Source of the DNA: Capsulimonadaceae bacterium
Lineage (GTDB): Bacteria; Armatimonadota; Armatimonadia; Armatimonadales; Capsulimonadaceae
DNA: 64,000 nucleotides
Reading direction: 5' to 3'
NCBI GenBank assembly: GCA_965215505.1
Contig: OZ244065.1
Coordinates: 4,608,001-4,672,000 of the forward strand
Each line of letters opens with the position of its first letter. The stretch's first letter is position 1. Positions 5,261-23,788 of this stretch are shown piece by piece. The position numbers and the translations under genes were made by a program. The notes under the pieces are model-generated. The model was given only the letters and a program-made list of their open reading frames with translations. It ran no database searches and had not been told where the DNA came from.

Positions 5261-6703
5261 TTGGCACTAGACAGCGTGGTCGGGACGCGGCGCGGGGGCG
5301 CGTCGGAGCATTCACAGGAGCATTCGGAAGACGGGATCGGGCCGCTGCCCGGCGTGACGGAGCCGGAAGAAACGGGCCGGAGCCTGCACCGGGCGGTGTG
5401 GATGCTGGCCTGGCCCTCCGTGCTGACCATGCTGCTCCAAACGCTCAACTCCTTCACGGATCGCTTCTTCGTCGGCCACCTCGGCTCGGACGCCCTGGCC
5501 GCCGTGGGCGTCGGCGGGCAGTTCATGTTCCTGCTGTTCTCGGTCGGCATGTCTATCTCGGTCGGCACGTCCGCCCTCGTCGCCCGGTTCACCGGCGCGA
5601 AGGAAGCCGACCAGGCGACCCTGGCGGCCAATCAGTCCGTCTGGATCGCCCTGCTGTCCGCCTTCGTCTGCATGGCGCTGGTCTGGCCGCTGCGGCATCT
5701 GGTCGTCGGCTGGATGGGAGTCAACTCCCACGCGGCGGGCCTGTGCGTCCAGTACCTCACCGTCACACTCCTCGGCATTCCCGCTCTGTTCCTGATGCTG
5801 ATCCTGAGCAGCGTCTTCCGTGGCCTGGGCGACACGGTGACGCCTCTGCGCGTCATGATCGGGGTCAACATCATCCACCTCGGCGGCGACTGGCTCCTGA
5901 TCTTCGGCAATTGGGGCTTCCCCCGGATGGGCCTGGTTGGCGGCGCGACCGCCCTGATCGCCTCGCAGGTCATCGGCGCGCTGCTCTACCTCTGGTTCCT
6001 GCGCGACTCGCCGGTGCGCGGGCTGATGACCCGGCTGAAGCGCCTGGACATGGAGTGGGCGCGGCGCATCCTGAACATTGGCCTGCCCGCCGCCGGTCAG
6101 AACCTTTCGCGCGTCCTGTCCATGATGATCTTCACCGGCGTTCTGGCCCGCTCCCCGCAAGCGACGGCGGCCGTGGCCGCCCTGACCATCGGGCTGACAT
6201 CCGAAAGCATCGCCTTCATGCCCGGCTTCGCCTTCTCCATGGCCGCCTCCACGCTGACCGGCCAGAACCTGGGCGCGGGCAAGCCGGACCGGGCCGAGCG
6301 GGCGGCCTGGGCCGCCCTGCTGCAAGGGCTGGTCGTGATGGTCTTCATGGGCGCGGTCTTCTTCACGTTCGCGACGCCCTTCGCGCACATCTTCACCCAT
6401 GACCCCAAGGTGGTCCCGCTCGCCGTCGCCTACCTCCGCATCGCCGCCCTGTCCGAGCCGTTCCTTGCCCTGGGCATGATCCTGACCGGCGCGCTCAACG
6501 GGGCGGGCGACACCAAAGCCCCCGCGCTGGCCGGCATCGTGACCATGTGGGTGGTCCGCCTGCCGGTCGCCTGGCTCGCCATCTATACCCTGGGCTACGG
6601 TGCCGTCGGCGCGTGGTGGGCGATGTCCCTCTCCACGGCCCTCAGCGGACTGGCCGCCCTCGCCCTGTTCAAGTGGGGGCGCTGGAAGCAGACGGTGGTG
6701 TAG
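5261..6703 (+). CDS. MATE family efflux transporter
   Basis: About 12 TM helices; LAWPSV..D.FFVGHLG.DALAAVG, RGLGDTVTP, GQNLGAGK, GAGDTK. Confidence 0.92.
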   Translation: MALDSVVGTRRGGASEHSQEHSEDGIGPLPGVTEPEETGRSLHRAVWMLAWPSVLTMLLQTLNSFTDRFFVGHLGSDALAAVGVGGQFMFLLFSVGMSISVGTSALVARFTGAKEADQATLAANQSVWIALLSAFVCMALVWPLRHLVVGWMGVNSHAAGLCVQYLTVTLLGIPALFLMLILSSVFRGLGDTVTPLRVMIGVNIIHLGGDWLLIFGNWGFPRMGLVGGATALIASQVIGALLYLWFLRDSPVRGLMTRLKRLDMEWARRILNIGLPAAGQNLSRVLSMMIFTGVLARSPQATAAVAALTIGLTSESIAFMPGFAFSMAASTLTGQNLGAGKPDRAERAAWAALLQGLVVMVFMGAVFFTFATPFAHIFTHDPKVVPLAVAYLRIAALSEPFLALGMILTGALNGAGDTKAPALAGIVTMWVVRLPVAWLAIYTLGYGAVGAWWAMSLSTALSGLAALALFKWGRWKQTVV

Positions 6704-6721
6704 AACACGTCTCTGAAGGGC

Positions 6722-6755
6722 AAAAAGCGGCCCGTCAGTCTTGCTGACGGGCCGC
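6722..6755 (-). terminator. Intrinsic terminator (U-tract on minus strand; possibly bidirectional)
   Basis: Perfect 12-bp stem GCGGCCCGTCAG/CTGACGGGCCGC preceded by A5. Confidence 0.75.
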
Positions 6756-7317
6756 CTCACGGAAGGGTATTCAGTTGCGAAAAGGGCCGAGGGAACAAAA
6801 GGACGTTTCCTACGCGGCCCGTCCCCGAGACGCTTGATTACGTCCCGCGTTAAACTCGGTGCCGGTGGGCCTCACGCCTTGGATGGTGCGCGGACGGCAG
6901 CGGCAAGGGACTGGGGCCAGGCCGGTCGGAAACCCTGGGGCGATTCCAGGGCGGTCATCTCAGGGCTGAGGCGGCCCGCGCTCCGGGAGCGGGGCATCGT
7001 AATGGAACTCTGAAAGCCGGTGAACGTGCATCTCATCCTCCGCAGCAGTCTGGAGCCGGCCCGTGGGGGCGGCGACAACACGACGGGATTTTCGGACGCT
7101 CGAACAACCTCCCTTTAATGGCGATGACACTACTGTACCCGAAAAACAATGTTTTGTTGTGATTGCGACAAAGATAACTTAAAGTCTCCACCCCTGGTAA
7201 ATGTGGGGGCGTTCGTGTCATAATGGATGTGGAATGAACAAGACCGGCACTGAAGCCGGCGCTCCGAGGGGGATGGGCCTCTTTCACTCGCTCCGCTTTT
7301 CCGAGAAAGGACCCAGA

Positions 7318-18030: not shown

Positions 18031-18862
18031 GCCGCCTGAACGTCGCGGCGAAATGCTGGGACGACGAGAACCCGAGTTCCAGGGCCAGGTCGGTGACGGC
18101 GATGTCGCTGCCGGTCAGCATCCCCTGGGCCAGACGGACGCGCACGGCGAGCAGGTAACGGTGGGGGGAGACGCCCACTTCGCGGGTGAAGCACTCGACC
18201 AGGTGGTGCGCCGATACGCCCGCCAGACGGGCCAGGTCGGGCAGCCGCCAGGGGCGCTCGGGCTGATGGTCCAATAGCTCTTTGGCCCGTCGGACGGCGG
18301 GGTGGCGCAGGGTCAGCGAATGAGTTTCGCCCGGCGCGGGCGTCTCCGCCAGCCGGGCGGCTTCCAGGACGACGGCGTCCAGGGCGAGCCGGATGCCCGA
18401 AGTGCGGTGGGGCAGGGCCAGGGAGACCTCCCGGATGAGCTGCCGGAAGGGGGCCGTCAGGGCCTCGCCGCGTGGACGGAAGATAGGGGTGTCCCGTTGC
18501 CAGGCGGAGGCGAGTGCGGGCAGACGCGCGCAGACGGCGGCGAGATCAACAGCGGCGAAGAAGAAGTGGTGCTTGTCGTCGGGCCGGTCGTGCATCCGGT
18601 GCGGGACGTGGGGCGGGGCGGCGAAGAACGCGCCGGGCGTCAGCGTGTAGGTTTCGCCCGGAGCGTCCCAGCGGCTCTCGCCGCTGATTTGGAGGTAGAA
18701 CTCCCAGACGGCGTGGCTGTGGCTAGGGATGAACAGCCGCCGCGAGGCCCACTGCTCGCCGATGTGCGCCAGTTCGGGCACGTCGGCGTCCGGCCGGTCC
18801 GCGTGGAAGCCTGCCAGCACATCGGGCGGGTGCCCATAATGGGTGAGTGGATTTGTGGGCAT
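17969..18862 (-). CDS. AraC family transcriptional regulator
   Basis: Cupin HSHAVWE..H; C-terminal LARLAGVS..HL..F..EVGVSP..Y and LGFSSSQHFAATFRR. Confidence 0.92.
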   Translation of the reverse strand: MPTNPLTHYGHPPDVLAGFHADRPDADVPELAHIGEQWASRRLFIPSHSHAVWEFYLQISGESRWDAPGETYTLTPGAFFAAPPHVPHRMHDRPDDKHHFFFAAVDLAAVCARLPALASAWQRDTPIFRPRGEALTAPFRQLIREVSLALPHRTSGIRLALDAVVLEAARLAETPAPGETHSLTLRHPAVRRAKELLDHQPERPWRLPDLARLAGVSAHHLVECFTREVGVSPHRYLLAVRVRLAQGMLTGSDIAVTDLALELGFSSSQHFAATFRRLTGETAQGYRGRQHGVSEKA

Positions 18863-18935
18863 CTGCCGAAGATTCCATACATTCGCCCGAAACTCCTGCA
18901 ATCGCGTTCGCCCGCCCAGCGCGTACAATGAGGGC

Positions 18936-19793
18936 ATGACACTCACCCCAGACCAGGCGGCGCTGCTGCCCACCGACGACGAAGTCCGCCTCTACCGCGA
19001 GCGCGGCTTTTACCTGTCCCGCCCCCTCTTCACCGAGGAGGAGATTGACGTTGCCAAAAACGGCAGCGAGCGGTTCTACGCCCGCGACCTGGACGACCCC
19101 CCCTTCGCGATGCCGGACCGGTGGCGGCCCACCGGCGAGTACGGGGACGGCCTGCGGAAGCACGACTACGCCTCGTTCTTCAGCCACGGCCTGAGCGCCC
19201 TAATCCACCACCCCCTGCTCGCCGCCGTCGCCGCCCGGCTGGCCGATACTCCCGAGGTGCGGCTGTGGCATGACCAGCTCCTTTACAAGCCCACCGACAA
19301 CCCCGACAAGAAGGCAAACGTCGGCTGGCACACCGACCGGGGCTACTGGAAGACCTGCTCCTCGCCGAACATGCTGACCGCCTGGATACCGTTCCACGAC
19401 TGCGACGAGGAACACGGCACGATCACCATGATCGAGGGCAGCCAGCATTGGCCGGACAACACCCAGACCCTGAACTTCTTCAGCAGTGACCTGGAGGGCC
19501 TGGAAAAGCGGTTCGACACGGGCGGTAAGCCGGTCGTCAAGGTGCCGATGAACATGACGAAGGGCCAGGTCAGTTTTCATCACTGCCTGACGATCCACGG
19601 CAGCGGCCCCAACCGCCGCCCGGACCCGCGCCGCGCCATCGCCGTCCACTTGCAGGACAGGCCGAACCACTGGCAGGAATACCACTTCCCCGACGGTCGC
19701 CTGGGCCACCACGACAACGACGACCTGTGCCGCAAGGCGGACGGCATCCCCGACTACACCGACCCGAACATCTGCCCGACGCTCTACCCATAA
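18936..19793 (+). CDS. Phytanoyl-CoA dioxygenase (PhyH) family Fe(II)/2OG enzyme
   Basis: WHTD...IHGSGPN...RRA facial triad pattern. Confidence 0.9.
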   Translation: MTLTPDQAALLPTDDEVRLYRERGFYLSRPLFTEEEIDVAKNGSERFYARDLDDPPFAMPDRWRPTGEYGDGLRKHDYASFFSHGLSALIHHPLLAAVAARLADTPEVRLWHDQLLYKPTDNPDKKANVGWHTDRGYWKTCSSPNMLTAWIPFHDCDEEHGTITMIEGSQHWPDNTQTLNFFSSDLEGLEKRFDTGGKPVVKVPMNMTKGQVSFHHCLTIHGSGPNRRPDPRRAIAVHLQDRPNHWQEYHFPDGRLGHHDNDDLCRKADGIPDYTDPNICPTLYP

Positions 19794-19818: not shown

Positions 19819-20613
19819 ATGACACTCCAGCCGACAATCACGCTCACCGAGGAGCAGATCGCGTTCTACCACGCGAACGGCTTCCTCGCCATCGACTCCA
19901 TCACGACCTCCGAAGAGATCGAGCGCCTGCGCGGCGTCTACGACCGCCTGTTCGAGCAGCGGGCCGGACGCGCCGAGGGCAACCAGTTCGACCTGGCCGG
20001 GACGGACGAGGAGGGAAAGCCAGCCGCCCTGCCGCAGATCCTCGGCCCGCGCAAGTACGCGCCGGAACTCGCCGAGACGGTGTACGAGGCGAACGCCCGC
20101 GCCATCTCGGAGCAGCTCTTGGGGCCGGGCCTCGCGTTCACGGGCGACCACGCTATCTTCAAACCCGCCGGGGTGGGTGCCCCGACGCCGTGGCATCAGG
20201 ACGAGGCGTATTGGGACCCCAACCTAGACTACCACTCCCTGAGTGTCTGGATGCCTTTGCAGGAGGCGACACTGGAAAACGGCTGCATGGTCTTCCTGCC
20301 GGGCAGCCACAAGCAGGAGATCACGCCGCATCACAGTATCGGTGGCGACCCGCGCGTCCACGGGCTGGAGATGCTGGACGCCGTGAACGAGGCGGAGGCC
20401 GTCGCCTGCCCCCTGCCGCCGGGCGGCGCGACCTTCCACGACGCGCGCACGATGCACTTCACCGGCGCGAACCGCTCCGCCGTCCCGCGCCGCGCCTACA
20501 TCATCGGCTTCGGCCGGCCCGCGACGCCGCGCGCCGAGGCCCGCTCCTTCCCCTGGAACGAGGCCAAGCGGACCGCCCGCGACGCGCGCAGCCGGGCGGC
20601 GGGCAAGGCATGA
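19819..20613 (+). CDS. PhyH family Fe(II)/2OG dioxygenase
   Basis: TPWHQD, ENGCM, MHFTGANRS..RRAY. Confidence 0.9.
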   Translation: MTLQPTITLTEEQIAFYHANGFLAIDSITTSEEIERLRGVYDRLFEQRAGRAEGNQFDLAGTDEEGKPAALPQILGPRKYAPELAETVYEANARAISEQLLGPGLAFTGDHAIFKPAGVGAPTPWHQDEAYWDPNLDYHSLSVWMPLQEATLENGCMVFLPGSHKQEITPHHSIGGDPRVHGLEMLDAVNEAEAVACPLPPGGATFHDARTMHFTGANRSAVPRRAYIIGFGRPATPRAEARSFPWNEAKRTARDARSRAAGKA

Positions 20614-20755
20614 ACCGGCACTGGAAGTGCCGGTCTACTCTTGTGTGAAAACCCCTACGGGTTGAAGACAAGTGTGAAGACTAACGGCAGGTGGCTTGTC
20701 TGTGGTCGCGGAGCGACTTTCATTCCAGAGTGGGCCGGCACTTCCAGTGCCGGTT
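20613..20755. repeat. REPIN-like doublet (29-bp inverted arms)
   Basis: 20613-20641 and 20727-20755 are reverse complements with 2 mismatches. Each arm is GTRG-RCCGGCAC-TTCCA-GTGCCGGT. Confidence 0.8.
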
Positions 20756-20772: not shown

Positions 20773-20967
20773 TCAGGCGCGGAAGGCGGCGAGCAGCCTG
20801 AGCAGGTCACGCGCCGTGAGGTCCACGACCCTGGTCTCGGCGTCTATCCCTGCCGGCAAGGCTAGGGAGGCGCGGGACTGAAGTGGGGTGGGTTCGGGCT
20901 GTGGGGGGCCGGGCGGGGCGGCGGCCACCGTGTCAGGCTCTGGGTCTGCTTTCCGTTTGCGCGCCAT
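20773..20967 (-). CDS. 64-aa protein sharing the N-terminal motif of the adjacent KD-repeat protein
   Basis: AAAGGA RBS. IDAETRVVDLTARDLLRLL aligns with VDMNAKVGDMTVRQLSDIL in 21043-21678. Confidence 0.7.
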   Translation of the reverse strand: MARKRKADPEPDTVAAAPPGPPQPEPTPLQSRASLALPAGIDAETRVVDLTARDLLRLLAAFRA

Positions 20968-20994
20968 GAGGGATTGTCCTTTCTCGGAGATCCT

Positions 20995-21032
20995 GGCGGC
21001 CATCCTATCCCTTACGGGGAAGGATGGCCGCC
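20995..21032 (-). terminator. Stem-loop after the KD-repeat gene (transcript stabiliser or partial terminator)
   Basis: GGCGGCCATCCT...AGGATGGCCGCC, 12-bp stem, no clear U-tract. Confidence 0.55.
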
Positions 21033-21042
21033 CGGCGGTGCA

Positions 21043-21678
21043 TCAGCTTCCTCCGCCCTGGCCGCCACCTTGCTGGAGGGCGGCGACCTGCTGCTCCAGG
21101 CCGGTGACGCGCTGGATGAGCTGGTCAATGCCCTGCGCGGGGTCGCCCGGATCGGTGGGGATGTTACCCTCGGCCAGCTCCTTCTCGTTTTTGAGGACTT
21201 CGGACGCGATCGCCTTCTGCTCGATGAGCTGATTTTTGTCCTGGACGCGATCCTTGATGTTGTCCTTGATGCCGTCCTTGATTGTGTCCTTGTGGTCCTT
21301 ATGGCCATCCTTGATGTGGTCCTTAAGGTCTTTGTGCTCTTTGTTGTCCTTGCCGTCCTTGCCGTCTTTTTGTTCTTTGTGTTCCTTGTTGTCCTTGGTG
21401 TCTTTGGTGTCCTTGGTGTCCTTGTGGTCTTTGTTGTCCTTGCCGTCCTTGTGATCCTTAACGAACTCTTTGACCGGCTCCTTGATGCTCTCCTTGGCCT
21501 GCTCCTTGATGATCTGCTTCTCGAACACCTGCTTCTCTTGGACTTCTTTGGCCTTCCGGGGCGCGCTGCTGCCCAGGATGTCGGAAAGCTGGCGCACGGT
21601 CATATCGCCGACTTTGGCGTTCATGTCAACGGTCAGGTCGGGGCGGCTCTCGCCGCCGATGAAAGGCTCGTCTGCCAT
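21043..21678 (-). CDS. Lys-Asp/Glu repeat protein; putative ATP-grasp substrate / RiPP precursor
   Basis: AGGAG RBS; 211 aa; 15 consecutive K[DE]x triplets flanked by K[DE]xx units; C-terminal heptad helix. Confidence 0.85.
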   Translation of the reverse strand: MADEPFIGGESRPDLTVDMNAKVGDMTVRQLSDILGSSAPRKAKEVQEKQVFEKQIIKEQAKESIKEPVKEFVKDHKDGKDNKDHKDTKDTKDTKDNKEHKEQKDGKDGKDNKEHKDLKDHIKDGHKDHKDTIKDGIKDNIKDRVQDKNQLIEQKAIASEVLKNEKELAEGNIPTDPGDPAQGIDQLIQRVTGLEQQVAALQQGGGQGGGS

Positions 21679-23758: not shown

Positions 23759-23788
23759 AGTGTAGCATACAAGCGGGGGAGTTGTCAA
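23759..23788 (-). promoter_or_regulatory. Sigma70-type promoter of the ATP-grasp operon
   Basis: Minus strand TTGACA-18 bp-TACACT with TGn extension, about 120 nt upstream of the start. Confidence 0.65.

Follow-up and report, generated by a model that had tools for sequence, protein, structure and literature searches.

The window, i.e. the whole 64-kb stretch of DNA that was analysed, contains a compact minus-strand operon of four genes in the order gene A, gene B, KD-repeat protein and small ORF (Table 1). The small ORF encodes a product of 64 aa, MARKRK...AAFRA, and its position as the last gene of the operon, as described in the first-pass annotation, is correct for this window. The pair of PhyH genes that converges with the operon is syntenic in G011 (L033), a single PhyH gene lies at the same place in L031, and no PhyH gene was found at this side of the operon in L020, L024 or L032. 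Furthermore, comparison of L020, L024, L031 and L032 showed no conservation of flanking genes other than A, B and KD. As the flanking genes differ among these four loci, recognition of the small protein's motif by a protease, transporter or oxygenase was left unsupported beyond the genus-level synteny of PhyH, and Lys hydroxylation by the neighbouring PhyH enzymes, by analogy with corallotide, is conceivable but unsupported.

Table 1. Positions, in window coordinates, of the genes and sequence features of the operon and its surroundings.
Feature	Position	Strand	Evidence or remark
Promoter-like site upstream of gene A: TTGACA, 18 nt, TACACT, with TG	23759..23788	-	consensus scan only
Gene A, predicted pseudo-ligase, 304 aa	22724..23638	-	full graspetide ATP-grasp fold; directly upstream of B
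Gene B, graspetide-type ATP-grasp ligase, 320 aa	21768..22730	-	TIGR04187, PDB sequence matches, DYR loop
KD-repeat protein, predicted graspetide precursor, 211 aa	21043..21678	-	orthologue alignment
Leader block 1 of KD, EPFI, residues 4-7	21658..21669	-	12/12 KD proteins versus 0/20 small proteins
Leader block 2 of KD, residues 17-36, VDMNAKVGDMTVRQLSDILG, common to the small protein	21571..21630	-	
Stable RNA hairpin in the gap that separates the stop codon of KD from the start of the small gene, no U-tract	20995..21032	-	MFE -40.5 kcal/mol, z -4.5
AAAGGA, Shine-Dalgarno-like, ahead of the ATG at 20967	20977..20982	-	kept in homologous loci
Small protein gene, 64 aa	20773..20967	-	ORF and called gene in public collections
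Motif copy 2 of the small protein, residues 41-59, IDAETRVVDLTARDLLRLL, homologous to KD residues 17-35	20791..20847	-	hhalign, KD-only HMM, shuffle test
Palindromic hairpin of 19 nt, shortly past the 3' end of the small gene	20735..20753		reverse complement at 20615-20633
Two PhyH-type 2OG oxygenase genes, convergent with the operon	18843-19793 and 19819-20613	+	

The B protein matched TIGR04187 with an E value of 3.3e-45 and 154.6 bits (the curated cut-off is 350) and MvdD with an E value of 2.4e-35, and its PDB sequence matches were led by PsnB, MdnC, PruB (9bou) and CdnC. By sequence, B is clearly related to the graspetide ligases and falls outside the curated equivalogs. Residues D226-Y227-R228, K166, E280 and N282 were invariant or nearly so across 117 B-family sequences, and K166, E280 and N282 are those that we take to bind ATP and Mg. 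B thus has both the D(F/W)R-type loop and the ATP/Mg-binding residues of a graspetide system, the importance of the ligase loop being drawn from work on PsnB (bioRxiv 10.1101/2021.03.09.434688). The B family is large in metagenomes, with at least 3323 proteins at E values up to 1e-20 among 8000 candidates scored.

An AF2 model of A (pLDDT 81.5, pTM 0.82) found its best Foldseek matches in CdnC, AMdnB, MdnC, PsnB and PruB, with E values of 1e-15 to 1e-17. When 18 positions that are invariant in B were checked in A, 16 were replaced or deleted, one was kept in all A sequences and one in half of them, and the losses include the Lys of YKSLSG, the DYR loop and E-x-N. Because 16 of the 18 positions are lost despite a full ATP-grasp fold, we regard A as a pseudo-ligase. 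In 12 of 13 loci, B is immediately preceded by an A-type gene, which suggests that A and B form an obligate pseudo-ligase/ligase pair. Of the two ATP-grasp genes on which the first-pass annotation had drawn, B therefore stands as a graspetide-type ligase, whereas A is better described as a pseudo-enzyme.

Some variation was observed around the ligase genes. At L030 (995-1270) the ligase B gene is cut after ~72 residues with no A gene detectable upstream, and this locus looks degenerate. In G011, a MAG, an IS1-like transposase directly follows ligase B on contig C499 (L010/L019, 2390-3244), and contig C32 (L033, 1-250) begins with the 3' end of B carrying a tandem 12-nt repeat expansion, followed by KD, the small gene and two PhyH genes; the difference between the two contigs reflects either a mixed population or an assembly that was interrupted at the IS.

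Alignment of orthologues showed that the KD protein opens with a leader, carries K/D/H triplet repeats and has a conserved helix at its C-terminus, and it had no Pfam or NCBIfam match. The window's KD protein contains 20 Kxxx[DE] positions, and the number ranges from 18 to 34 across 12 KD proteins. As expected of the precursor in a graspetide system, KD is adjacent to the ligase and combines a Phh-type leader with a core rich in Lys and Asp/Glu. A word-indexed search with the KD N-terminus returned 6 proteins. Two different KD precursors, P0139 (206 aa) and P0141 (204 aa), are reported with longest contigs of equal length, 12,755 nt, and some loci may hold two KD paralogues. On a 2.3-kb metagenome contig (L025, 1151-2314), the ligase ORF runs stop-free into KD repeats and the C-terminal helix, and this represents either a natural ligase-precursor fusion that has no leader or an assembly artefact.

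The KD leader is built of two blocks, both of which were present in all 12 KD precursors at a constant distance from each other. Block 1, EPFI, stands at residues 4-7 in 10 of the 12, at 3-6 in L031 and at 14-17 in G348, and block 2 follows the pattern VD....KVGD[LM][ST]VR[QE]L..[IV]LG (17-36 in the numbering of the window's protein). Previous studies described a 'Phhx(1,2)h' motif akin to the microviridin PFFARFL in graspetide leaders (PMC8939145), an RPFG tetrapeptide as the ligase anchor of ThfA (PMC13003496) and Phe15 as the ligase anchor of the PsnA2 leader (bioRxiv 10.1101/2021.03.09.434688). By analogy, EPFI corresponds to this Phh/RPFG/Phe anchor, the key ligase-recognition element of the literature.

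Several lines of evidence bear on the reality of the small gene. An AAAGGA sequence lies 8-10 nt before its ATG and is kept in 3 homologous loci whose products have a MARKR start, at the same distance in L031 and L020 and also in L033, and in public collections the 64-aa product, not a 76-aa alternative, is the called gene. The conserved Shine-Dalgarno sequence and the recorded gene call together favour the start at 20967. Relative to its orthologue in L031, the small gene has 34 differences at third codon positions versus 17 and 14 at positions 1 and 2. From these sequence comparisons, we conclude that the 64-aa ORF is a real, conserved gene. A tblastn search of its own genome with the small protein found only the protein itself, and Pfam and NCBIfam contained no family for it or for three homologues at E values up to 0.1 or 0.01, nor was it by sequence a member of the RRE/PqqD-like, MirC or CorC families. 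In the window, the small protein has a basic N-terminus, MARKRK, a disordered Pro/Ala-rich linker and a single C-terminal leader-helix motif, and its AF2 model (mean pLDDT 65.7) was disordered except for a helix at residues 52-63.

The first-pass annotation had reported that the C-terminus of the small protein aligns without gaps to the N-terminus of the KD protein. This alignment exists: residues 41-59 of the small protein and 17-35 of KD are identical at 7 of 19 ungapped positions, and their BLOSUM62 score is 35. The window pair by itself gave a BLASTP E value of 0.18, which is not significant, and 2 of 1000 shuffles equalled its best ungapped score. An HMM built from five KD N-termini ranked the small ORF 5th of 118,184 six-frame genome segments (E 6.4), and the same HMM scored the orthologues of the small protein at 7e-10 (L031), 9e-8 and 1.6e-7 and the window's own protein at 3.2e-5 (Z=1). 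In hhalign comparisons, 10 KD N-termini matched motif copy 1 of the small-protein family with a probability of 96.3% (E 1.7e-9) and matched motif copy 2, the copy present in the window, with 94.3% (E 1e-7) in the register originally proposed, and the two motif copies matched each other with 97.2% (E 4.5e-11). In the reverse direction, a profile of the small-protein family searched against the whole genome returned the KD protein as its next-best match (E 3.6e-5). Thus, the window pair alone is suggestive, and it is the profile comparisons with relatives that settle the matter and confirm, at the level of sequence, the homology of the small protein's motif to KD leader block 2.

What is shared is the helical second block. 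EPFI was found in none of the 20 small proteins, one of which has EPAV within its Pro-rich linker, and because the block that is invariant in KD is missing from all 20 members, the small protein is a partial mimic: as judged by sequence, it reproduces only the helical one of the leader's two parts. The description of the protein as a copy of the leader motif therefore applies to block 2 and does not extend to block 1. It was also said to contain no KD core, which is correct, as neither KD repeats nor any other repeat core is present. Of the features of a RiPP leader, the small protein has the helical block but neither an EP-hh/Phh motif nor a core on the same polypeptide.

The small-protein family was assembled from genome relatives, metagenome loci, a word-indexed search and a profile search of 1.84 billion representatives, and comprises 20 members. 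The profile search (E up to 0.001) yielded 17 matches, 15 of which are small proteins of 53-103 aa; the other two, P0135 (2286 aa) and P0137 (934 aa), are repetitive, match weakly and partially at many places, and were excluded as unrelated. No fusion of the small protein to a core occurred among the matches in these representatives. The family layout consists of a basic N-terminus, a Pro/Ala-rich linker, motif copy 1 (KV.DM.VR.LL.LLG), a second linker and motif copy 2 (..E.KV.DLTVG.LL.LL). All 20 members have at least one motif core and 16 have two; two others start within copy 1, probably because the gene was called too short, and the window's protein and P0129 carry copy 2 only. Among the 16 two-copy proteins, 13 have their cores 39-41 residues apart, across a linker of poorly conserved sequence, such that the two motif copies and their spacing are the best-conserved features of the family. 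From this distribution of motifs, the two-copy form is taken as ancestral and the window's protein as a reduced, one-copy variant. The basic N-terminus reads MARK[RKHTQ] in 16 of the 20 members, and all 17 members with a basic start have a Lys at position 3-4; the L022 protein has no basic N-terminus.

The context around the KD gene was readable in eight lineages. In five of these, the next gene after KD is the small gene, namely in the window, G011 contig C32, L031, G035 (L020/L021) and L022, whose B ligases are 100, 91, 87, 80-81 and 69% identical to that of the window, respectively. The KD-small pair lies upstream of A-B in L022 and downstream elsewhere. No homologue of the small gene was found in L024, in the L026/L027/L032 group or in G348 (B 63, 59 and 58% identical). 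As it was not found in three of the eight lineages, the small gene is accessory and not needed for the core chemistry, i.e. a lineage-specific addition to the A-B-KD core as far as gene content tells.

Among 401 sampled genomes of the phylum, three (G000, G011 and G348) have a close ligase, and credible matches to the small protein were confined to G000 and G011, with none in G348. A further match, in G132 (E 4.8e-5), had an internal stop and an unrelated ORF context and was discarded. A search of genome contigs for the locus with very specific patterns found 2 loci. No credible small protein was found away from the A-B-KD system in the 401 genomes or in the loci with readable context. The first-pass annotation had proposed that a profile of the motif should co-occur with the ligase and that the ORF should be present at homologous loci. 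The co-occurrence was borne out, in that small proteins were seen only in ligase-bearing genomes, in 2 of the 3 such genomes among the 401; presence at homologous loci held for the five lineages named above and did not extend to the remaining three.

Two kinds of hairpin flank the small gene. The one that separates it from the KD gene has counterparts of other sequence at the same intergenic place in L020 (~6740-6770, z -3.2), L031 (~6677-6715, z -2.2) and L033 (~870-905, z -2.3), and is possibly an attenuator or a stabiliser of the mRNA 3' end. Its occurrence in four lineages suggests that the small gene is expressed below the level of the precursor. The second, palindromic hairpin consists of CCGGCACT, 3 nt and AGTGCCGG, is perfect, and is present in both orientations at the 3' ends of two convergent genes, the copy at 20615-20633 lying just 3' of the convergent PhyH gene. 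As 12 copies of this 19-nt type occur in the 6.18-Mb genome, it is a small dispersed palindromic repeat.

To account for these observations, we propose, with a probability of roughly 45%, that the small protein mimics the leader helix, binds in trans to the paired A and B ligases and thereby tunes processing. According to this proposal, its amphipathic helices would dock on the A/B site that reads leader block 2, docking would modulate processing of the KD precursor, and the ancestral two-copy form would dock bivalently, with one helix per protomer of the dimer. With neither the EPFI anchor nor a core, the small protein would more likely act by gating, competition or loading of the pseudo-ligase than by full leader-type activation. 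The premise of the first-pass annotation, that RiPP ATP-grasp enzymes are activated by leaders and that leaders can act in trans, agrees with in vitro work in which leader peptides activated graspetide ligases, also when supplied in trans (bioRxiv 10.1101/2021.03.09.434688; PMC13003496).

No genes other than A, B and KD are conserved around the small gene, which leaves their products as the only plausible receptors of the small protein. The choice of A/B among them is favoured by the duplicated helix at ruler-like spacing, the disordered remainder of the protein, the existence of a pseudo-ligase protomer and the precedent of PsnB, which acts as an asymmetric dimer (bioRxiv 10.1101/2021.03.09.434688). 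It is also favoured by the hairpin that follows the precursor gene in four lineages, which would fit the lower expression of a factor directed at the enzyme. Complex prediction for A, B and the small protein, run with alignments and no controls, gave a score of 0.01 against a mark of 0.32 and was weighed neither way. Other observations speak against docking on A/B. The window's own protein has lost one of its two motifs, the conserved basic MARKR N-terminus is left unexplained, and the tightest linkage of the small gene is to the KD gene and not to A-B, which fits action on KD or a local duplication equally well. The gene was also not found in L024, the L026 group or G348, so that the system works without it. 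Moreover, as EPFI, the counterpart of the main anchor, is missing, the small protein may bind the catalytic ligase weakly or not at all.

The linkage to KD is the starting point for a different explanation, which we consider unlikely, in which the small protein targets KD rather than the enzymes, through helix-helix pairing, as a cap, chaperone or stoichiometry controller. The small gene stays beside the KD gene even where the pair has moved relative to A-B (L022), and the conserved, coiled-coil-like C-terminal helix of KD suggests that KD oligomerises. Homologous amphipathic helices can self-associate, and this was also counted in favour of action on KD. However, the helices span only ~10-12 residues, which is short for stable pairing, the ~40-residue spacing of the motif copies is better explained by two sites on a folded dimer, and the intergenic hairpin suggests that the small protein is made in sub-stoichiometric amounts relative to KD.

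The unexplained N-terminus raises the question of a function apart from the leader, e.g. as a basic nucleic-acid-binding or regulatory protein that obtained its motif by partial duplication of the KD 5' region. To this we assign a lower probability than to action on KD. The MARK[RKHTQ] sequence in 16 of the 20 members is not accounted for by the leader-mimic models, and the protein matches no Pfam or NCBIfam family, but the features that are best conserved in the family are the motif copies and their spacing rather than the N-terminus, and outside the ligase system no credible copy was seen.

The small gene could also be a decaying remnant of a second precursor gene from which leader fragments alone survive and which has no function. 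RiPP loci often have several precursor paralogues, and group-39 rows with two precursors per locus are present in the PMC13097080 survey; in addition, motif 1 is lost in the window's copy, and the gene was not found in three of the eight lineages. Such a remnant would hardly be expected to persist down to 69% ligase identity and across 15 clusters at 50% identity, nor to retain intact frames, a conserved start and Shine-Dalgarno sequence, a fixed motif spacing and an excess of third-position differences, and we place decay below both preceding alternatives.

Improbable, in our estimate, is a role of the small protein as a substrate with a 'follower' architecture, whose N-terminal Lys would become linked to an acidic residue of its own or of KD. 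The Lys at position 3-4 is conserved in all 17 basic-start members, a leader placed C-terminal to the core still directed a graspetide ligase in engineered substrates (PMC13003496), and group-39 cores are rich in Lys, Asp and Glu (PMC13097080). Nevertheless, no acidic partner stands at a conserved distance from the N-terminal Lys, the L022 protein has no basic N-terminus, and EPFI is absent. We give still less credence to a scheme in which the C-terminal helices recruit A/B and the N-terminal Lys is ligated to KD aspartates, which would produce a protein-protein isopeptide conjugate. Such a conjugate, if real, would imply a tagging or cross-linking chemistry that is not known for graspetide ligases. 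Finally, a chance match of two generic amphipathic helices, which the BLASTP result for the window pair (E 0.18) and the genome-wide HMM result (E 6.4) would permit, is scarcely credible given the profile-profile E values of 1e-7 to 2e-9, the score of 7e-10 for the L031 homologue with the KD-only HMM, the reciprocal genome-wide match and the adjacency of the genes in 5 of 5 contexts.

RiPP leaders are regarded as address labels within the substrate, and in the graspetide literature a leader supplied in trans is a laboratory trick. If docking of the small protein on the A/B pair is correct, it would represent a natural trans-acting leader mimic that has neither the main anchor nor a core, and would serve a ligase with a pseudo-ligase partner as an integral regulator, gate or subunit-loader. 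This bears on how two-part leaders are read, on the purpose of pseudo-ligases and on the processing of a precursor with ~20 repeats, and it could be of practical use as a genetically encoded switch for ATP-grasp macrocyclases. Even if the small protein is inert, it would still provide a clean example of the duplication and drift of a leader module. Literature searches, judged by titles and abstracts, turned up no natural stand-alone leader protein or pseudo-ligase partner of this kind.

With respect to known systems, the A-B-KD system matches 'graspetide group 39' of a 2026 RODEO survey (PMC13097080), the number 39 being read from a presumed group-number column, and supplement file 2 of that survey lists the KD orthologue of G035 among its predicted precursors of graspetides, next to two synthetase-like accessions. 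Group 39 is a predicted, uncharacterised graspetide group. Its other rows contain short precursors in which EP-hh is followed almost at once by an ELLRD..TG-type helix, and by eye KD block 2 resembles this helix, shifted by ~20 residues from EP-hh. The sequences MARKRN, MARKRK and VRDLL were not found in the searched part of supplement file 2. The pairing of A with B resembles that in 'branch 8' (PMC8939145), in which an inactive ATP-grasp paralogue lies beside an active one; however, the branch 8 proteins are truncated to two N-terminal domains, whereas A is full length and has a complete predicted fold.

The first report of partner proteins for graspetide ligases dates from 2026 (PMC13097080). 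In corallotide, a TIGR04187 ligase, itself activated by a 2OG oxygenase, forms isopeptide rings from the KxxxD motifs, and the precursor, of ~22 kDa with repeated Lys...Asp (KxxxD) rings, is similar to KD, which has Kxxx[DE] spacing too (PMC13097080). MirC of rosaritide and CorC of corallotide are extra cluster-encoded proteins that modulate a TIGR04187-type ligase, and in this respect they are the precedent for the small protein. Both are folded and unrelated to their precursors, MirC being SurA-like and CorC a 2OG oxygenase (PMC13097080), whereas the small protein is a disordered mimic, of 64-106 aa, of the precursor's own leader and belongs to no Pfam family.

The closest likeness is to the trans and fused leaders of the MdnC, PsnB and ThfB work, in which a short leader element apart from the core engages and activates the ligase, as here a leader-derived helix is carried on a polypeptide separate from the core. 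Those leaders are laboratory constructs that retain the full recognition element (PFFARFL, the Phe15 region or RPFG). In contrast, the small protein, known from sequence, is natural and separately encoded, consists of block 2 only, usually in duplicate, and has no EPFI.
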